Positions 1-13,052 of a stretch of 14,732 nt of DNA are shown here, piece by piece. The notes beneath the pieces were generated by a model. The model saw nothing but the letters and a program-made list of their open reading frames with translations, had not been told where the DNA came from and ran no database searches. The stretch spans positions 1-14,732 of the forward strand of contig JAWOFX010000060.1 of NCBI GenBank assembly GCA_046497275.1, read 5' to 3'. Numbering within the stretch: the first letter of the stretch is position 1; each line of letters opens with the position of its first letter. This DNA is from Promethearchaeia archaeon. GTDB taxonomy: Archaea > Asgardarchaeota > Lokiarchaeia > Sigyniarchaeales > SOKP01. Position numbers and translations under genes: made by a program.

Positions 1-1013
1 TATTTCTCTTTGAACTTTTGAGTTAAATTTTCTAAACATTGATTTATAAAACTGTTTGTCTGATTCATTATCGCCAACACAGCAAAACCCAAATCATTAT
101 TATAATTCACAACGATTTCAGCATTTTTAGTTTGTAAAGAATCGATTTGGTCTTCTTTATTGATAAATTCAGATAATATATGATTTAAACCTATCAAAAT
201 ATTCCCCCATATGGCCGAATCGTTTTCTTGAGGTATCGATTTTTCAAATTTATAAGAATATAACAAGACTCCTGTCTTATGGTAAATATTGATAAAGAAA
301 ATTTTATTTGTTAGAGCAAGAAATAATTTTGGATAAACAATTGCTAAATAGCATATTATATTAACAGACATCCAATAGATCAAAATAAATAGAGTTCTTA
401 AAATAATAAGATTATAAAAAATATAGAAACAATATATAATAACTGAAACTGTTAGTATTGCTGTAAATAGAATTAGTTTATCACAAAAGTCTTTATTATT
501 TGAGATTTTATAGATTTCATGTAATTTATATAGACTATAGATCACTCCGGCCAAATTAATAAGAATAATTAGTAGTTTGAGAACTAGGTTAAATGAAAAA
601 TAAATTTGATCGTTGTTTATAAAATTAATATTAATAGATTGAGGTGAGAGTAAAGTTCCAGCAATTAAACTAAGGATAATATTAAATAATAAAAACAAAA
701 ATACGGGGGGATGACCATAACTTCTTAGAAAGCTAAAAACAAAGCAGTATATTAATAAGGAGATTGTTTCAAAAATAATAGTAAAATAAAATAATGTTAG
801 ATTAATTCTTTCGGTAAATATGATTTCAATTGAAAGATAATATATTAATGAGAATACTATTCCATTGAATAAAATAGAACTTGATAATAATGATGGGATT
901 GTTTTTAGTCCATATTTTTCTCGATTCTTAACTATAATAGGAATAGCAATCCCGCTAGTCAAAATAGAAATTATTAGACCAATAAATATTAATACCGAAA
1001 AAACGTCAGACAT
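1..1013 (-). CDS. 7TM membrane protein with C-terminal longin-like domain (3'-truncated by window edge; paralog of 1131..2234)
   Basis: Hand translation of the - strand: ATG at 1013..1011 and no stop down to the window edge (337 codons), MSDVFSVLIFIGLIISILTSGIAIPIIVKNREKYGL...LTNKIFFINIYHKTGVLLYSYKF...WGNILIGLNHILSEFINK...YNNDLGFAVLAI...KFKEK. Seven hydrophobic segments are followed by a soluble domain with 37/81 identities (hand alignment) to the neighbour's C-terminal domain. The longin fold is inferred from sequence pattern. Confidence 0.88.
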   Translation of the reverse strand, partial: MSDVFSVLIFIGLIISILTSGIAIPIIVKNREKYGLKTIPSLLSSSILFNGIVFSLIYYLSIEIIFTERINLTLFYFTIIFETISLLIYCFVFSFLRSYGHPPVFLFLLFNIILSLIAGTLLSPQSININFINNDQIYFSFNLVLKLLIILINLAGVIYSLYKLHEIYKISNNKDFCDKLILFTAILTVSVIIYCFYIFYNLIILRTLFILIYWMSVNIICYLAIVYPKLFLALTNKIFFINIYHKTGVLLYSYKFEKSIPQENDSAIWGNILIGLNHILSEFINKEDQIDSLQTKNAEIVVNYNNDLGFAVLAIMNQTNSFINQCLENLTQKFKEK

Positions 1014-1130
1014 GCTATTAAATATTGTAAAGAAGTTTATTATTTTTATACTTATAGAGGATTAATTTTCTCATTACATATTTATATTAATGATGCAACT
1101 CTGTTATTGTTTTTTGATTATTTCTAAAAA

Positions 1131-2234
1131 TTAAGATAGAAATGGTTTAAAATATTTTTTTATAATGTTCTTTGAATCTTTAAATTGTGAAACATCAATC
1201 AATTGAGCTTGTTGATTGATCTTATTTAAGATTTGATTATTTATTTGCGAAAAATCTTTCATAAACAGATGTACTGCTTTATCAATAATATTACTTCTAT
1301 GGCTAGCTATTAGCAAGATAGCATACCCATAATTGTTATCATATTCAAAAATAATATCCCGTTCTTTCATTTTGATTAGATTCAATTTACTTTTCTTATT
1401 TATAAAACTAGAAAGAATATGATTTATACCTATTAATATAGTACCTTTTAATAATGATTCTTCAATTTCTTTATTCTCTTCGAAATCATAAGAGAATAAT
1501 AACACACCAGAACGATGAAAAATTACGAAATTGTAGATCTTATTAGTTACCACAACAAATAATTCAAACTCCTTAATGGTAATGAAAACGGCTACACCTA
1601 GAAAACTCAAAAACACTATGGAATACAAGAATCTTAAGTAGGATGAAGGAAATGCCAGAAAAAGAGTATATAAAAATGTATTAAGTAATAGTAGAGATAA
1701 AATAATAATAAACAGGTTTGCGATATTTTCAAAACTGATATTTTTTGAACCTTTTAATTGAGCTAGAATTCCTATAATAATTACTAATATATTAAAAATT
1801 AAAATAAGGTTATAGAATAAAGAATTGTTTATAATAAAAAGATAGTTCCCTTCGTAAATTGAAATATTAAACGGGGTACCTAAAATTAAAAAACTCGCAA
1901 TTATGCCACCTAAAAAACCATAAATAAAAAAAGGGAGATAAGCAAAACGATTTTTAAATAAGATATAAACGTGAGTTGAGCTGAGTAGTGAAAGTTTAAA
2001 TACTCTCAACAAGAGGGATATTTTCCAAAAATTTTTTACAAAAAAAATGGGGAAAACAACCACAAAAGAAAGATTAAAAAAGAGAAAATAAATCGCCTCA
2101 ATAAAGAGATAAAGAGATATTAATATTTTCTCAGTTAAATCTATCACATATTTTTCTTTATTTCTGATAAGATACGCAATTCCAATTGTTGAGAAAATAT
2201 GTGCTAATGTAATTAAGATAATACTTTGAATCAT
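1131..2234 (-). CDS. 7TM membrane protein with C-terminal longin-like domain
   Basis: 367-aa ORF. About 225 N-terminal residues contain seven hydrophobic segments with a basic first loop (RNKEK). The C-terminal domain (TNKIYNFVIFHRSGVLLFSYDF...GTILIGINHILSSF...DIIFEYDNNYGYAILLI, then two helices) fits the longin beta-beta-alpha-beta-beta-beta-alpha-alpha pattern. Confidence 0.85.
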   Translation of the reverse strand: MIQSIILITLAHIFSTIGIAYLIRNKEKYVIDLTEKILISLYLFIEAIYFLFFNLSFVVVFPIFFVKNFWKISLLLRVFKLSLLSSTHVYILFKNRFAYLPFFIYGFLGGIIASFLILGTPFNISIYEGNYLFIINNSLFYNLILIFNILVIIIGILAQLKGSKNISFENIANLFIIILSLLLLNTFLYTLFLAFPSSYLRFLYSIVFLSFLGVAVFITIKEFELFVVVTNKIYNFVIFHRSGVLLFSYDFEENKEIEESLLKGTILIGINHILSSFINKKSKLNLIKMKERDIIFEYDNNYGYAILLIASHRSNIIDKAVHLFMKDFSQINNQILNKINQQAQLIDVSQFKDSKNIIKKYFKPFLS

Positions 2235-2527: not shown

Positions 2528-4462
2528 ATGATGAGAATAGGCGATTGTATTGATTTTTTAGATGAAAAAAATATCATTGAAGAGAACTTCGCTCATTATA
2601 TTCAAAATTCTAATAGAAGCCAAATACAAATAAATAAGAAATTAATCAATAAAATTATTAGAAAATCAAGAAATTATTCTTTAGAACATGAAAATAGAGA
2701 AATTTTTGATGTCAGTAAGCTATACAAGAGAGAAGTACTTTATTCTAAAAGGAAAGAATTGGGGGAAATATATACTCCTCGAAAAATTGTAGAAAATATT
2801 CTTGATGGCTGTGAATATCAATCTCATAATGACTTGGATAATAAGAAATTAGTGGATTTGAGCTGTGGTGCGGGAAGTTTTTTAATTCCTTCAATCAAGA
2901 GATTAATTGAGTATTACTTGAGGATATTTAATAAAAAAAGAGTCTTGGATTTATTACCAGAAGAAGCACATATGATTATTGAAAGTATAAAAAACAATAT
3001 ATACGGTATAGATATAAATCCTATTGCTTGTATATTAGCGCAAATTAATTTTCATATCTACTTATATCCAATATACAAAATATTAGATATATCAACGAAT
3101 GATTTTAAACCTCCCTTATTCAATATTATTAATGAAAATAGCTTGAATTTGCTAAAATATGAAAATTCATTAGTTCCAGAAGAATTTGATTATGTTATTG
3201 GGAATCCTCCTTATTTATTCATTAGAAATATTCCCAAAAATCATAAGGAATTGATTGAATCTAAGAATCTTAAAACAAACACAGGTCAATATGATTATTA
3301 TCAAATATTCTTAGAATTAGGAAAAATTTTCTTAAAGGAGGGTGGAAAGTTAGGTTTTATCATTCCAGATTCATTATTGGCCTTATCTAATAGAAAAACT
3401 ATTAGAAAATACATTTTTGACAACACTAAAATATTAAATATTAGTGTTATGGGATCTCAATTTGAAAATAGTGTTGTTTCTAATATTATTTTAATATTAG
3501 AGAAAGAATCGGATAGATTGCAAAGAGAAAATAATGAGATTAAAATTTATTTCAATAATTCAAGAAGAAAAGGAATAAATACAATAGAACAAAAACAATT
3601 AAAAAATTGGAATTACCGCTTTTTAATTAATCTGTATAAAATAGATATTCAGATTTTAGATTATCTTAATAATAAATTTCCCACCTTGGGAGAATTAATT
3701 TTCAAAAAGGATTATAAAATCATACTAAATAGAGGTGTTGAACTTACTAAAGAAGGGAAAATATTTTATTGTCAACAATGTAAAAAATATTATCCAATAC
3801 CAAAAAAAAATAATGTATGTAGAATTTGTGGGACATCCTATGATAATGATTCTATTGAAAACATTATAGTTGAAAATTATCCTACCACATTTAAAAATTC
3901 AGATTATCTTCCCTATATTTATTCACTCCGACGTTATAACATTGGGAAATATAAGTATATAAACGTTAATAAACGCGGGATTAACTATAAAAATCTTAAT
4001 TCTTTCAAAAAAAGAATAATCATCCGCCAAATCAATCAAAATGGATTAATTTGCGCAAGTTACGATCAAAATATATCTTTAAGCTCCCAGAGTTTTTATA
4101 ATCTTAGGATTATTGATTCTCCCGTTCCAGAGTTTAATAATTTTTATCTTTTAGGGTTAATAAATTCATATCTTTTATCATATTATTTTATTAAATCATT
4201 TGGGTCCTATAAACAATTATTTCCAAGAATTCTTATAGAAAAGATTAAAACACTTCCGATAAAAATCCCTTATACTAAAAAAGAAAGATTATTAGCTCGT
4301 GATATCGAGGAAGAAGTAAAAAATATTTTAAATAACAATTATGAAAATGATACTTTTGTGGAAAAACAACAAGATTCTATTAATAAAAATGTCTTTCTTC
4401 TTTATAATTTAGAGGAGACTCAAGAAAACTATATAAAAAGATTTATTACAAAACAAAAATAG
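2528..4462 (+). CDS. N6-adenine DNA methyltransferase, gamma class (M.TaqI/Eco57I-like), with C-terminal target recognition region containing a C4 zinc ribbon
   Basis: Motif X (RKELGEIYTP), motif I DLSCGAGSF (2855..2881), GIDINP and motif IV NPPY (3203..3214) occur in gamma-class order. The C-terminal region resembles TaqI-C (RIIIRQI...SSQSFYNL...YLLGLINSYLL...IEKIKTLPI). CQQC-x12-CRIC lies at 3770..3829. Confidence 0.9.
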   Translation: MMRIGDCIDFLDEKNIIEENFAHYIQNSNRSQIQINKKLINKIIRKSRNYSLEHENREIFDVSKLYKREVLYSKRKELGEIYTPRKIVENILDGCEYQSHNDLDNKKLVDLSCGAGSFLIPSIKRLIEYYLRIFNKKRVLDLLPEEAHMIIESIKNNIYGIDINPIACILAQINFHIYLYPIYKILDISTNDFKPPLFNIINENSLNLLKYENSLVPEEFDYVIGNPPYLFIRNIPKNHKELIESKNLKTNTGQYDYYQIFLELGKIFLKEGGKLGFIIPDSLLALSNRKTIRKYIFDNTKILNISVMGSQFENSVVSNIILILEKESDRLQRENNEIKIYFNNSRRKGINTIEQKQLKNWNYRFLINLYKIDIQILDYLNNKFPTLGELIFKKDYKIILNRGVELTKEGKIFYCQQCKKYYPIPKKNNVCRICGTSYDNDSIENIIVENYPTTFKNSDYLPYIYSLRRYNIGKYKYINVNKRGINYKNLNSFKKRIIIRQINQNGLICASYDQNISLSSQSFYNLRIIDSPVPEFNNFYLLGLINSYLLSYYFIKSFGSYKQLFPRILIEKIKTLPIKIPYTKKERLLARDIEEEVKNILNNNYENDTFVEKQQDSINKNVFLLYNLEETQENYIKRFITKQK

Positions 4463-6406: not shown

Positions 6407-9400
6407 ATGAATAAAATTGAACAACTAAAATTAACTTATATTCCTTCTAAATATTGGAATAATAGAAACAGCGATTTTAGTCTTTCAATAGATGAAAAAA
6501 GCATTCCTTCTAACGCAAGTTTCTTTTTACTTTGGCTGGGAGTATCTAACTCTGACAAAGATTTAGAGCAAAAAATTATTAATACTTTTCCAGAAATTCC
6601 TATACAAAAATTACTAAGTTGTGAAATTAATTTAGCTTTTCTAAAGCAACAAATTAAGAAAAATAATAAATTTAGAATAAGAAAGATAAAAGCAAAAATA
6701 CTCCCTTTAATTCCAGCTTCAAAACTTTTAAATCAATTAGAAATATTGGAAAGAGAAGGATCAAAATATATTTACTCTTATAGTAGTTCAATCGAAAGTT
6801 GGTCCTTCATAACTAAATTTATTTTTGAACTTCTAAATAGAGGAAATTTTGTCCCAATATTAGAAAAACAAAATGATAAGAGTTTTGAAGGTCATTGGCG
6901 ATTGATTTTAAAGGATAAATATGATTATGAGAGATTCCAAGAAATTCTACATAATACTCCATGGTTTGCATATAATATACCAGGTAGGCTCATAAATAAT
7001 GAATCTTGTGATGATGGAGAATTTTACTCTGACAGTTTGTGGCATCCCTCTTACATTTTATCCGATTATATCGATACTATAGGGGATATATTAATCCGTT
7101 ATATACTAAAGATAACTAAATTTCGAGCTCTTGACGATTTTTATAATGTGGATAAATTGAAAGAGAAAAGAAGAGAATTTAATCTTAGCTGGGATTACAA
7201 ATTTCTTAAATCTTTAACGAAAAGCGAAAAAATCTTTTCTATAACTCAATTTCATGAATCTATCATTCCAAAATTAATCAAAAATTGGGTTAATGTCGCT
7301 CAAACATCAACTTTAAAGCATGGTATTACAATTTCGTTAAAATTGGAATATCCTGAAAAAGATCAAATAGAATGGCCTTTAGAGGTATTATTATATTCTC
7401 AAGAGGGTGATAAAAACATTCCTCTAAAAGATTTATGGATTAAAAAAGAAAATATTGATATTGATATAATTCATACATTTCAAACAAAAGAAGAATTTCT
7501 TGAGATTATTTTAAGAAGTTTGGGGACAATTTCTAAAATTTATCCTCCTATGAGAGAAGCTTTAAAATCACCATATCCAAAAAAGCTCCTACTTAATTCT
7601 TCTGAAGTTATGAATTTCCTTGGATATCCTAAAGATTTATTAATCCAAAGCGGTTTTAATGTTATTCTACCAGAAGTCTTCAAGGTAGGCGGAAAACAGA
7701 GATTATCAGCAAAAATGGTAATAACTTCAAAAAATAAAAAAAAGATTAAAAACATCTCATCTCCGATCGCACCTATGTTTCAATTTAATGAATTTTTGCG
7801 ATATAAATGGGAAATCGAGGTAGGCGATAAAAAATTACAAAAAAGTGAATTAGAGGGATTATTAGAAACTAATCAGCCACTTATTAACTGGAGAGGAGAT
7901 TGGATTCTCTTAGAAAAACAAGATATAGAAAATATTAAAGAAATCTTTAAGGATTCTGAGAATAAGGCTTTATTTTCTGAGTCAGAAGGGAATATAAATT
8001 ATATTGATGCAATAAAATTAGGCTTAGCGGAAGAAATAAATTTAGAAGAAACAGGTCCAAGCTATGAAGTCATTATAGAGGGAGATTTCAATGAAATTGT
8101 CAAAAGAATAAAATCAATTGAAGAATTTGAAGAAATAGCAATTCCAAAAAAATTCAATGGAAAGCTTAGACCATATCAAGAAATTGGATTGAAATGGATG
8201 GCAAACATGTGTGGGCTAAATTTTGGCGTTTGCCTTGCAGATGATATGGGATTAGGTAAGACTATACAAGTTATTGCTCTTTTACTTCATTTTAAAGAAA
8301 AATTTTCAGAAGGATTAGGCAGCACTTTGGTAATTTGCCCAACATCTGTTTTATATAATTGGAAACGAGAAATTGAAAAGTTTGGTCCAAATCTTGAGAT
8401 TGAACTCCACCATGGTCCAGATCGTCTAAAGGATGCTTCCAACATATCCAGTTATTTAAAACCTCATAAAGTCATATTAACATCTTATGGAACAATAAGA
8501 AATGATATAGAGTTATTAAAAACTATTCCATTTAGCGGAGTTATTGTTGATGAGTCTCAAAACATGAAAAATTATGAAACTCAGCAAACTCAAGCAATTT
8601 ATCAATTACAGAGTCAATATAGAATTTGTCTAAGTGGAACACCTATAGAAAATCGTCTAATGGAATTATGGACGCTTTTTGAATTCTTGAACCCTGGATT
8701 ATTAGGAAATAGGAGTGAATTTCAAGAAGATTTTATAATACCAATTGAAAGATTTCATAATCAAGATGCAATAGAGAGATTAAAAAGCATTATTTCACCT
8801 TTCATTTTGCGAAGAGTTAAAACGGATAAATCAGTAATTCAGGATCTGCCAGAGAAAAATGAGATGAAAATATATGTAGAGCTAAGTGAAACACAAATAA
8901 GCCTATATAGGGAGCTGGTAACCAATGTACTAAAAGAATTTGAGAGTGATGGGGATAAGAAGCAAGGTAAAAATATCTTAATTTTAAGTATGTTAACAAA
9001 ACTTAAACAAATTTGCAACCATCCATATCAATATTTACATAAAAATCTTACAAATGACATTTTGGAGCATAATCTAAATGATTTCGTTTCTCAATCGCCA
9101 AAACTAGAACGATTACTTGAAATGCTTGATGAAGTTATTGAAAGAAATGAGAAGGCAATTATTTTTACTCAATTTACCCAAATGGGTGATATTTTAGAGA
9201 AAATTTTAAGTTTTAAATACAAATTTCCGATTTTGTATTTTCATGGGGGGGTTCCAGCAGAAAAGCGCAAGGATATTGTAGAACGATTTCAATCAGAAGA
9301 TTTTAATAGCCCTCCTGTCTTAATTCTATCATTAAGAGCTGGGGGAACGGGCCTTAACCTAACAGGAGCAAATACAGTGTTTCACTTTGATAGATGGTGG

Positions 9401-9625
9401 AATCCAGCAGTAGAAAAACAAGCCACAGACAGAGCTTATCGTATAGGACAGACTGAACCAGTAAATGTCTACAAATTCATAACTGTGGAAACAATTGAAG
9501 AAAAAATAGATGATTTAATTGAAGAGAAAAAAGAGCTAGCAGATACGATAATAACTAGTGGCGAATCTTGGATATCTGAATTAAATGATGAAAAAATTAA
9601 AGATTTAATATCTATAAAGGAATAA
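6407..9625 (+). CDS. SNF2/SWI2-family ATPase (YwqA/HelZ-like) with long N-terminal domain
   Basis: All motifs appear intact: LRPYQ..[12 protein letters not shown] (I), [11 protein letters not shown] (Ia), VDESQNMKN (II), [14 protein letters not shown] (III), LRRVK, IFTQF (IV), [11 protein letters not shown] (V), [21 protein letters not shown] (VI). Confidence 0.95.
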   Translation: [1072 protein letters not shown]

Positions 9626-9647: not shown

Positions 9648-10568
9648 TTGAAAAATAGAAGAAATCTAAGAAGAACAAAAGATAATCATTATCCTATAGA
9701 TAAGAAAAAGAAACATGAAGAAGTAATGCAAATAAAAAGAGATTTAATTGATTTTGCAAGAACATCTTGGGGAAAAGAATGGATTCATTCTATTTTAAAA
9801 ATAGGAAGACCTTATAGAATGAGGAGAGGGATAAATTATGCAGAAGATGAGGAGCGTTTAAGTAATTTAAGAATACATAAAGGAGAAATATTTTCTTTAG
9901 TTCAAGGAACAGCACCAACTCCTTACCGTGTGAGAGTTAAATTCAAAATCATTCCAGAGGAAGGGTGGGAAAAAATAATTAATGAAATAGCTAACACGCT
10001 CTTAAATTTAATCATTTTACTAGAAGGAAAGCTTTCCGAAGATATAATCAAAATTTTTGAGAAATACAATTATTCCTTATTTCCTGACGTCTCAGAAGGA
10101 TTAAATGCTTCATGTTCCTGCCCTGATAAAGCTATTCCTTGTAAGCATATTGCAGCAACCATCTTATATATTTCACGAGTAGTTGACTATAATCCATTAA
10201 TCTTACTTAAAATAAGAGGTAAAACAAAAAAGGAATTACTATCAGAATTAAAATTGGGACAGAAAGTTGGAACTCTTGAAGTAGATATTGGATCTGGAAT
10301 AGAAAATAAAGAAAACCAAAATTGTTTATATTCGTTTGAGGTTCCAAAGATCTTACATCAAGAAATTAAAGATAAAGTTTTAGAAAGAAATGAATTGAAA
10401 GAAATTGATTTTCAATTTAAAAAATCAAGTAAAATTGTAGAAACGCTAGAAAATTTGGGTCTTCCTCCAAATTTAGAGTATCCAAAAGCCTTTTCCATTG
10501 TTTTAGAGAAAATATATGAAACAATTACGAAAGAGATATATCAAATGGCAATAGAAAAGTCTGAATAA
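9648..10568 (+). CDS. SWIM zinc-finger protein (YwqB/Rv2102-like partner of the SNF2 ATPase)
   Basis: SWIM signature CSCPD....CKHIAA (CxC...CxH), with family-typical WGKEW...RMRRG..YA and VQGTAPTPYRV segments, directly downstream of the SNF2 gene. Confidence 0.92.
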   Translation: MKNRRNLRRTKDNHYPIDKKKKHEEVMQIKRDLIDFARTSWGKEWIHSILKIGRPYRMRRGINYAEDEERLSNLRIHKGEIFSLVQGTAPTPYRVRVKFKIIPEEGWEKIINEIANTLLNLIILLEGKLSEDIIKIFEKYNYSLFPDVSEGLNASCSCPDKAIPCKHIAATILYISRVVDYNPLILLKIRGKTKKELLSELKLGQKVGTLEVDIGSGIENKENQNCLYSFEVPKILHQEIKDKVLERNELKEIDFQFKKSSKIVETLENLGLPPNLEYPKAFSIVLEKIYETITKEIYQMAIEKSE

Positions 10569-10747: not shown

Positions 10748-10967
10748 ATGTATAATTTAAACTTACTAAATAAAAAATGTTATATTATCACCATGATAAC
10801 TTTTTCAACGTCCTTTAATTTTATCTTTATTAGCTAAAATGATGTTTATTAATTCTGAGTTATATTTAATGGAATTAATTAAACCAAATTAAAAACCTAT
10901 ATTTATATTCCAATATTTTAATATTTAATTTATAATATAAGCTAGTTTAAAGAAATCTGTGATAAGA

Positions 10968-11924
10968 ATGGAACGACAACTCAATGCCTTATTAAATAAT
11001 TTTATGAATAATCTAAAAGGAGTCAAAGCCGTAGCGATCGTGGATAAAGATGGATTAATAATTTCTTCGGAAACAAGAGAGGAAGCGCAAGAAGATTCAG
11101 ATACTGTGATTGGTGTCCTCTCTGCTATTCTTGATGAATATATTGAAAGAGTAAAAAAAGAATTTGGAACTGAGAGTACTTTTTTTAATATCACAGTAAC
11201 TGGTGATAAAAAGCTTGCTTTCTGTTCTCGCGGGCCAAATACCATCTTAACTACTCTCGCAACACTAGAAACGGGAGATATAGAATTGAAAGTTCTATCG
11301 GAACATGTTGCTGGGAAGGTAGAATTATTAATCAAAGGAAAAGAGAACGTTTCACTCGAAATTCCTCAAATAATCAAAGTTCTTTCGCAAACTCGAAGTG
11401 GAAAACTTCCAAAAGGAGAATATTCAACTAAGTTGATTCTAACAGGAGATTGGAAAGTTGGAAAAACTTCATTGATAAGGAGGTTTGTAGAAAATAAATT
11501 TAAAGATGAATATATTTCTACTATTGGCGTTGATATAACCAAACATGTTATTGATTTAACCAAGGATACAAAAATAAATTTTATCATCTGGGATATTGGC
11601 GGGCAGAGCCTCGAACCATATAGAAAAAGATTCTATGATGGTGCAAATTGTGCAATGATTGTAGTTGATCGCACAAGAGAAGATACGTTATATAATATAA
11701 AAAATTGGATAAGAGACATTAAGGAATCTATAAGCCAGCCAATTCCTATCATAATAGTTGCAAATAAGAGCGACCTTGTTAATGAGATCGTTCTTAGTGA
11801 AGAGAAAATTAGAGAAGAAGCAGATCAATCTGGATATAATTATATAATTACTTCAGCTAAAACTGGAGAAAATGTTAATGATGCATTCCTATATATAGCG
11901 TATAAGTTTTTAGAAAAAATTTAA
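10968..11924 (+). CDS. Roadblock/LC7 (MglB-like) domain fused to a Rab-like small GTPase
   Basis: N-terminal ~120 aa has the Roadblock pattern (helix, GVKAVAIVDKDGLIISS, long helix, three strands, helix). GTPase motifs: G1 GDWKVGKTS, G2 STIGVD, G3 WDIGGQ, G4 NKSD, G5 TSAKTG. ATG 10968 preferred over GTG 10959. Confidence 0.93.
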   Translation: MERQLNALLNNFMNNLKGVKAVAIVDKDGLIISSETREEAQEDSDTVIGVLSAILDEYIERVKKEFGTESTFFNITVTGDKKLAFCSRGPNTILTTLATLETGDIELKVLSEHVAGKVELLIKGKENVSLEIPQIIKVLSQTRSGKLPKGEYSTKLILTGDWKVGKTSLIRRFVENKFKDEYISTIGVDITKHVIDLTKDTKINFIIWDIGGQSLEPYRKRFYDGANCAMIVVDRTREDTLYNIKNWIRDIKESISQPIPIIIVANKSDLVNEIVLSEEKIREEADQSGYNYIITSAKTGENVNDAFLYIAYKFLEKI

Positions 11925-12185: not shown

Positions 12186-13052
12186 ATGGGCTTTTCTCTG
12201 AAGGAATTAACCTATAAAGACAGAGAGATACTTTATCTCACAGAACAAGAATATGCAGGACCTTGGTTCAGCTTTAAAATGCATGGCAAGAAGGTAGGGA
12301 CAGTTCCTGTAATATTGAAAAATATTGAACCAACACCTATATATAAACTTGTAAATAGTAGAAAGGGTACTTATATCGATAGAATCACTCTGGATTTCGA
12401 TATTCAAGAATACTTAAAAGAACTAATTAAAAATGGTGAGCTAGTACCTGTGAAATTTAAAAAAGAAAACCCTTATATTCGATTGTATATTGATATCTTT
12501 TCTAAACCGAAAGTACCTTATATAAATACATTCTTTACATTCAAAAATATATCTGATTACAATCTTATAGATTTCAACATTTATTTTGTATTCGATTTCG
12601 ATATTAATGGTTTACAAGGATTTGATAATGATTTATCTGGATATGATAAAGAGAACGATATAATTTATCAATATGATAAAACGGGATTATATGCAGGTTT
12701 TTCTCCAATATCAAGATCTACTCATTATGAGACTACCCTCACTAAGAACTTTCATATTAACCAAAAGAAATTGAATTTATCTGATACCTTATACGATAAA
12801 CCAGGTGAGATACTTTCGGCTCTTCAAATCGAATTCAAAACTTTAGAACCACAACAAACCTTCCAAACAGCATTAAGCATTTCCGGGGGGCTAAACAAGG
12901 AAGAACTGTTTGATAATATTAATAAGGGTAAAAAAAGTGCTTACAAGTTTATAGTTCAAGTAAATAGAAATGTAAAATCTAAGTTTCGCAATAAACAAGA
13001 AGAAGCTTTTATTAAAATAAACGAACAAAAGTCCTTAGATTGTGGGAAATAA
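12186..13052 (+). CDS. Hypothetical beta-rich protein, possibly a stand-alone glycoside-hydrolase N-terminal-like beta-sandwich
   Basis: Clean 288-aa ORF with alternating aromatic/polar strands (INTFFTFKNISDYNLIDFNIYFVFDFDING..DNDLSGYD...IYQYD..YAGF). No signal peptide or TM segment. The fold assignment is from remembered pattern only. Confidence 0.7.
   Translation: MGFSLKELTYKDREILYLTEQEYAGPWFSFKMHGKKVGTVPVILKNIEPTPIYKLVNSRKGTYIDRITLDFDIQEYLKELIKNGELVPVKFKKENPYIRLYIDIFSKPKVPYINTFFTFKNISDYNLIDFNIYFVFDFDINGLQGFDNDLSGYDKENDIIYQYDKTGLYAGFSPISRSTHYETTLTKNFHINQKKLNLSDTLYDKPGEILSALQIEFKTLEPQQTFQTALSISGGLNKEELFDNINKGKKSAYKFIVQVNRNVKSKFRNKQEEAFIKINEQKSLDCGK

Follow-up and report, generated by a model that had tools for sequence, protein, structure and literature searches.

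A seven-helix membrane domain joined to a cytoplasmic longin domain in Asgard archaea: a conserved gene pair and candidate membrane partner of small GTPases

We find that a conserved gene of an Asgard archaeon (gene A, positions 1131..2234, reverse strand, stop codon included) encodes a protein of 367 aa (P0001) in which seven transmembrane (TM) helices, with the N-terminus outside the cell and the C-terminus inside, are followed by a cytoplasmic C-terminal longin domain, a fold on which eukaryotes dock small GTPases; the architecture is confirmed by structural modelling. Each of the two parts is of a known kind, and what is new here is that a prokaryotic 7TM input module is joined to a longin platform. 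The combination of 7TM and longin in Asgard archaea is without description in the literature that we searched, and the family is entered in public databases as uncharacterised; in a 2026 preprint, the structural clusters shared between Asgard archaea and eukaryotes include, without details, '7TM proteins' and one cluster called 'class C GPCR'. We suggest that the family provides a concrete and testable candidate for the membrane end of an Asgard GTPase pathway.

The window, by which we mean the whole stretch of 14,732 nucleotides that was analysed, corresponds to an entire contig (C74, 14.7 kb) from a 98.9%-complete genome of 3.85 Mb and 24-31% G+C. Gene A is a real, conserved gene, beyond what could be expected by chance, given its 107 homologues (word-indexed search), the 95 family representatives at 50% identity that an exhaustive search with HMMER retrieved from 1.84 billion cluster representatives, and the outcome for 400 genomes scanned across the phylum, in which strong full-length matches occur in 123 of the 134 that belong to the window's GTDB family, as a rule two per genome. 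Its reading frame remains open over 367 aa in DNA of 24% G+C. The homologues are mostly 360-375 aa in length, nearly all 107 are labelled 'Lokiarchaeota' or 'Promethearchaeota', and none of the 107 carries a precomputed Pfam domain, while the finding of only 95 representatives among 1.84 billion indicates that the family is narrow. A search of P0001 itself against Pfam returned no longin, HisKA_7TM, 7tm, transporter or enzyme signature.

The membrane domain comprises residues 1-221 (1572..2234, reverse strand), as delimited by AF2 secondary structure, hydropathy, a positive-inside count and structural alignment with VIA-align. In the full-length AF2 model, which was built on 60 homologues (pLDDT 83, pTM 0.75), the helices span residues 2-24 (TM1), 33-55 (TM2), 63-92 (TM3), 96-118 (TM4), 138-165 (TM5), 169-194 (TM6) and 198-221 (TM7), and the hydropathy profile of P0001 displays six clear peaks plus one amphipathic helix. 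A preliminary description of this DNA, made from the letters alone, had proposed seven hydrophobic segments, a basic first loop (RNKEK) and an N-out/C-in orientation, noting that an even number of helices would leave the C-terminal domain outside the cell. The model agrees with this description, since the count is odd, which places the tail of P0001 inside, and the RNKEK loop is present. Counts of lysine plus arginine over 60 family members support the same orientation, with means of 1.97, 2.23 and 3.32 in loops 1, 3 and 5 and 2.35 after TM7, and of 0.02 at the N-terminus and 0.22, 0.83 and 0.08 in loops 2, 4 and 6; under the positive-inside rule, this distribution predicts that P0001 is N-out/C-in, with its tail cytoplasmic and the loop between TM4 and TM5 outside. 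That loop, which had been described as resembling a beta-hairpin, is indeed modelled as two strands (residues 122-127 and 130-135), and the extracellular hairpin as a whole covers residues 122-135 (1830..1871, reverse strand). The extracellular surface of the modelled protein is tiny. Within the membrane part, the family alignment shows near-invariance at S56, S73 and G110 only, and no conserved polar pocket or catalytic-type residues stand out.

Comparison of the membrane part with the HisKA_7TM and GPCR folds, a check proposed at the outset, uncovered a likeness of shape to both (by VIA-align, and by searches of AFDB and the ESM Atlas). All of the top 50 VIA-align matches to residues 1-224 are GPCRs (Z 16.6-14.1, rmsd 3.5-4.3), the best being to GABA-B (Z 16.6, 223 residues, 3.6 A), yet these values lie little above the Z of ~13-14 that helical bundles reach by arrangement alone. 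The seven helices of the gene A protein thus superpose on those of receptors such as GABA-B and GPR155 (Z 14.1) and share their N-out/C-in orientation, and the protein resembles many class A receptors in its beta-hairpin between TM4 and TM5. Unlike GPCRs, however, it shows 6-14% identity in the structural alignments, the DRY, CWxP and NPxxY motifs are absent from the translated protein, and a heterotrimeric G protein is not implied; on the strength of these models, we take the GPCR likeness to be one of shape only. A Foldseek search of the PDB with the full-length model returned weak GPCR rows only (E 3.8e-3 upward), and an adiponectin-receptor (PAQR) structure occurs among the weak matches.

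Among predicted structures (AFDB, ESM Atlas), the closest are Asgard proteins of the same architecture (TM 0.82, 0.72 and 0.69), and the next neighbours are bacterial HisKA_7TM proteins (TM 0.53-0.59 over ~250 residues), whose outputs are GGDEF, HD, GerE, PAS or kinase, indicating that a module of this sort normally precedes a signalling output. As in HisKA_7TM proteins (PF16927), seven N-terminal helices with minimal outside loops are followed directly by a cytoplasmic domain, and UniRef gives one family member a label of this kind. The gene A protein differs in having a longin domain as its output, where those proteins have an enzyme or a DNA-binding domain, and in that the Pfam model fails: HisKA_7TM (cut-off 28.6 bits) matched neither P0001 nor the 60 family members at E<=1, nor the whole genome in any frame at E<=10.

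The longin domain comprises residues 230-367 (1134..1547, reverse strand) and is separated from the seven-helix bundle by a linker of about 10 residues; it was delimited using a domain model, VIA-align, Foldseek and a profile match. In the domain-only model (residues 222-367, from a 52-row alignment with distant stand-alone relatives; pLDDT 81.6), the order of elements is b1-b2-a1-b3-b4-b5-a2-a3, which is the longin order, a meander of five strands flanked by a single helix on one side and by two C-terminal helices on the other (strands at model residues 12-19, 24-29, 65-67, 72-78 and 83-89; helices at 39-54, 94-121 and 133-144). The C-terminal longin fold had been predicted in the preliminary description, with a PAS or GAF fold as the type of result that would contradict it; the model topology and both structural searches show a longin fold, which excludes PAS and GAF. 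Longin domains occupy every one of the first 37 VIA-align ranks (Z 12.9-8.6, 112-134 residues aligned), including Fuzzy (Z 12.9, 125 residues, 2.6 A), the SRX domain of SR-alpha (12.4), a chain of the Mon1-Ccz1 complex (11.8), Bet5 (11.6), VAMP7 (11.5) and a Lokiarchaeal longin dimer (8yqg_B, 9.8), and the circularly permuted roadblock fold appears from rank 38 only (Z 8.4, 86-99 residues aligned). Foldseek returned 12 matches in the PDB at E<=1e-3, all of them longin, and its PDB and Swiss-Prot matches include AP sigma, Mon1/Ccz1, Fuzzy, Bet5/Trs23 and SR-alpha, the best in Swiss-Prot being SR-alpha SRX (E 2.2e-5, TM 0.67).

Sequence comparisons point in the same direction. A profile of the domain matched yeast Trs23 in the PDB over b1-b2-a1 (E 3.5e-4), and Sybindin (PF04099) gave weak matches in 6 of the 60 family members (best E 0.0095). 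Stand-alone relatives of the gene A longin domain exist, at ~140 aa; distant relatives of ~140-185 aa also touch Sybindin and Intu_longin_1 (PF19031), and one distant stand-alone relative scores 25.9 bits against Fuz_longin_1 (PF19036), for which the cut-off is 26.1. P0001 did not reach the gathering score of any curated longin Pfam family, and its relatives are likewise sub-threshold.

Conservation is unevenly distributed along the protein, with a majority fraction of 0.69 in the longin half versus 0.47 in the TM region. The least conserved element is the outside hairpin (0.39), and the best conserved is the alpha1 helix of the longin domain (0.92), which spans residues 260-277 (1404..1457, reverse strand) and contains seven residues that are invariant in the family alignment (G264, L267, I268, G269, H272, I273 and L274). 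Alpha1 is also the part of the full-length model in which AF2 is least confident (pLDDT ~50, and 60-70 in the domain-only model), as might be the case, at a guess, for a helix that depends on a partner. Known longin and roadblock platforms dimerise through alpha1 and beta3, and the GTPase binds the single-helix face (PMC3747258).

Gene A is accompanied by a tandem paralogue of the same architecture, gene B (3..1013, reverse strand; 30% identical to A, BLASTP E 2e-28), which runs past the end of the contig. When reverse-complemented, the window's initial 191 bases are identical to the initial 191 bases of a second contig (C72), such that the two contigs join head to head within gene B and the break is an artefact of assembly; gene B is consequently whole, with its last 37 residues on C72. 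The spacer between the genes (1014..1130, reverse strand) is 117 nt long, with an oligo-T run past the stop of A and a TATA-like stretch before the start of B, and spacers in other genomes measure about 60-360 nt, mostly ~200. In all fetched loci with sufficient flanking sequence, and in more than 40 listed genomes, gene B follows A on the same strand, and in the loci examined the first copy of the tandem is always of the A type. In a maximum-likelihood tree, A and B are recovered as one split each (99/99 and 94/90), and their inner topologies mirror each other, indicating that the duplication is older than the radiation of the family and that both copies have been kept in order; this long retention argues for a non-redundant, joint action of A and B. 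Proteins of 353-397 aa from other families and classes match nearly end to end (E 1e-15 to 1e-20), and one genome outside the GTDB family contains 11 matches; the A-B pair is thus a single branch within a broader superfamily of Asgard 7TM-longin proteins. A predicted complex between the A and B longin domains, using the natural pair from another locus (L064, the A protein of which is 90% identical to that of the window), scored 0.28, relative to a mark of 0.32, from 20-row alignments and without controls, and weighs neither for nor against their pairing.

The same longin subtype is reused in several other contexts within this genome, in which the gene A longin profile has 20 matches, A and B included. 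Four further multi-TM proteins carry it right behind their last helix, as does, at residues 630-759, a 761-aa protein with ~12 hydrophobic segments (C112:12134-14416, reverse strand). In three proteins, a single TM helix is immediately followed by the longin subtype (C98:55-4356, C109:6274-9033 and C56:1-2577; open frames of 1434, 920 and 859 aa, the last overrunning the contig end); none of these has a significant Pfam match, and in those on C98 and C109 an additional signal-like helix at the N-terminus points to large ectodomains. Soluble carriers also exist, a second tandem longin pair among them, formed by two adjacent soluble proteins (C44:83327-86053, forward strand; open frames of 448 and 433 aa) with the longin at their C-terminal ends, and in one protein the longin precedes the TM helices. 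Beyond this genome, an 'MFS transporter' in AFDB (A0A842TMA7) has a similar longin tail, and a search with the longin profile for longer fused forms returned one protein, which is weak evidence. When the family was compared, profile against profile, with the other multi-TM-longin proteins of the genome, only the longin part could be aligned, or nothing convincing. The longin subtype, recurring as it does at the juxtamembrane position behind unrelated membrane modules, behaves like a transmitter module, and the conservation of alpha1 together with this reuse behind membrane modules fits an output or partner-binding role.

A potential explanation for these patterns is that A and B form a receptor-like pair, in which a longin platform docks a GTPase under the control of the 7TM domains. 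We consider this quite possible, if somewhat short of an even chance, and rank it as most likely, ahead of a passive anchor, a longin role without GTPases and a regulated transporter; it is favoured by analogy of fold, pairing and conservation. Under this hypothesis, A and B would assemble, probably into a heterodimer in which the longin domains meet at their beta3/alpha1 edges in the manner of Mon1-Ccz1 or TRAPPC1-C4, so that a longin platform with two helices would come to lie on the inner side of the membrane. This platform may then dock a partner from the cytoplasm, for which the ~48 Ras-superfamily GTPases of the genome are the most probable source, and a ligand or membrane state could alter this docking by way of a change in the fast-evolving 7TM bundle. 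The preliminary description had similarly envisaged a sensor in which a 7TM input drives a longin output, and it is by analogy that we infer an output onto a small GTPase. A stricter version, in which A and B make up an obligate heterodimeric 7TM receptor with longin tails acting as a signal-gated platform of the GEF/GAP type for a specific Asgard Ras-superfamily GTPase, seems to us decidedly unlikely.

Alternatively, the seven helices may merely tether a constitutive longin platform that recruits a GTPase or trafficking-type machinery, with no sensing involved. Precedents for such anchoring include LAMTOR1, which tethers Ragulator, and SR-beta/SR-alpha at the ER. The very small extracellular surface of P0001, the lack of conserved pocket residues in its membrane part and the far better conservation of its longin domain than of its TM domain are all in keeping with a static anchor, as is the presence of SR-alpha SRX among the best structural matches. 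However, one helix would suffice for tethering, and seven receptor-shaped helices with an ordered hairpin, maintained family-wide in two diverged copies, would be a costly means to this end; moreover, the closest prokaryotic look-alikes of the membrane part are the input modules of signalling proteins. We regard a purely passive anchor as rather unlikely.

Whether a GTPase is the partner at all may also be questioned, and here the gene neighbourhood is of relevance. Small GTPases and longin/roadblock proteins number in the dozens in Asgard archaea, and their genes are rarely found in operons; to our knowledge, no organelles have been seen in cultured Asgard strains. This genome has 48 Ras-family matches, and Ras-like genes are not enriched near its 19 longin loci (P 0.12-0.49), which agrees with the remark that, in MK-D1, GTPase genes generally lie outside operons with roadblock, longin or TRAPPC3 genes (PMC10933270). 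The window does contain a 321-aa protein in which a Roadblock/LC7 domain (PF03259, 31.6 bits), at the N-terminus, is fused to a Ras/Rab-like GTPase (PF00071, 129 bits), at 10959-11924 on the forward strand, 9 kb from the A-B pair on the other strand and behind a methyltransferase gene, hisB and an SNF2/SWIM pair. Although gene order including this fusion is kept in the closest species, no Roadblock-GTPase occurs within 10 kb in an orthologous locus of 48% identity, and we reject the fusion and the A-B pair as one system, the synteny being confined to the closest relatives. Similarly, in the single tight adjacency of a GTPase gene and a TM-longin gene in the genome (C84:2197-4134; L067), a Rab-like GTPase of 195 aa is encoded 213 nt upstream of a multi-TM-longin paralogue of 378 aa, in the same orientation, and this adjacency was rejected as a conserved link, as it is absent from six orthologous loci. 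In the orthologous loci examined, the A-B pair has no conserved GTPase or regulator gene as a neighbour.

Longin domains are also able to act without GTPases, as in SNARE longins and AP sigma. The longin tails of A and B might accordingly serve as a dimerisation or autoinhibitory module, as an adaptor for peptide motifs, or as a relay to, for example, a transcription regulator. This would be consistent with the missing genomic link between longin loci and GTPases and with the structural comparisons, in which the longins of AP sigma, VAMP7 and Sec22b score equally to those of GEFs. Nevertheless, we consider it unlikely, given that the organism possesses ~48 Ras-superfamily genes with few known regulators, that the loci examined show no regulator gene conserved next to the A-B pair, and that most longin pairs in solved structures serve GTPases (PMC3747258). 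Finally, the membrane part could be a transporter, channel or lipid-handling enzyme with the longin domain as a cytoplasmic regulatory appendage, as the ~12-TM carrier in the same genome, the 'MFS transporter' of AFDB with such a tail and the weak PAQR match might suggest, but this is very improbable considering that the 50 best VIA-align matches include no transporter, that Pfam provides no transporter or enzyme signature, and that conserved catalytic-type residues are lacking from the membrane part.

Returning to the docking of a GTPase by a receptor-like pair, comparison with known systems clarifies both its appeal and its peculiarities. The longin domains of A and B have the same fold, and the same order of strands and helices, as those of Mon1-Ccz1 (acting on Rab7), TRAPPC1/Bet5-TRAPPC4/Trs23 (Rab1) and Fuzzy-Inturned, and A-B likewise consists of two paralogous longin proteins that are kept together and in which the alpha1 face is conserved. 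In contrast, the eukaryotic heterodimers are soluble, peripheral-membrane assemblies with extra subunits, whereas each A and B longin is covalently joined to its own seven-helix domain, and their heterodimer is a proposed one. In the SRP receptor, the SRX longin of SR-alpha is similarly held at the membrane beside a small GTPase, SR-beta; there, however, it is the GTPase that is anchored and the longin that is monomeric and soluble, whereas here the longin is anchored, and the A-B locus has no SRP-related gene context.

Soluble Asgard longins, such as the Lokiarchaeal dimer 8yqg (Z 9.8), belong to the same phylum and display the same fold, but soluble Asgard longin and roadblock proteins differ from A and B in being cytosolic or fused to the GTPase itself. 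Fusions of longin or roadblock domains to GTPases have been reported from Asgard genomes (Tran et al. 2024, PMC10933270), in a paper that makes no mention of membrane-embedded longin forms (the word 'transmembrane' occurs 0 times). Among GPCR-like proteins, LYCHOS (GPR155) offers a parallel, in that its GPCR-like domain contacts the longin-containing GATOR1. The A/B paralogue pair also recalls GABA-B1/B2, which are class C receptors and obligate dimers.

The family would show that 7TM modules and GTPase-platform folds were already paired before eukaryotes. Even with a partner other than a GTPase, the family would represent a new type of output for prokaryotic 7TM receptors. Should the stricter, heterodimeric receptor reading hold true, it would constitute a direct coupling from 7TM receptor to small G protein in a prokaryote, one that pre-dates, and conceptually bridges, GPCR signalling and the longin-based control of Rab and Rag at eukaryotic membranes.

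With regard to the remainder of the window, an N6 DNA methyltransferase gene of the Eco57I/MmeI type with a TaqI-like specificity domain (2528-4462, forward strand) is divergent from gene A and is the sole neighbour kept beside it in 5/5 loci (L026, L027, L063-L065), with no functional link to gene A being evident. An ORF of 288 aa (12186-13052, forward strand) has no Pfam match at E<=0.1. Between these, a 1072-aa helicase of the SNF2 family (6407-9625, forward strand), on the L026 orthologue of which DUF3670, SNF2-rel_dom and Helicase_C are named, is followed by a SWIM zinc-finger protein of 306 aa (9648-10568, forward strand), and the same pair is also found in L026.
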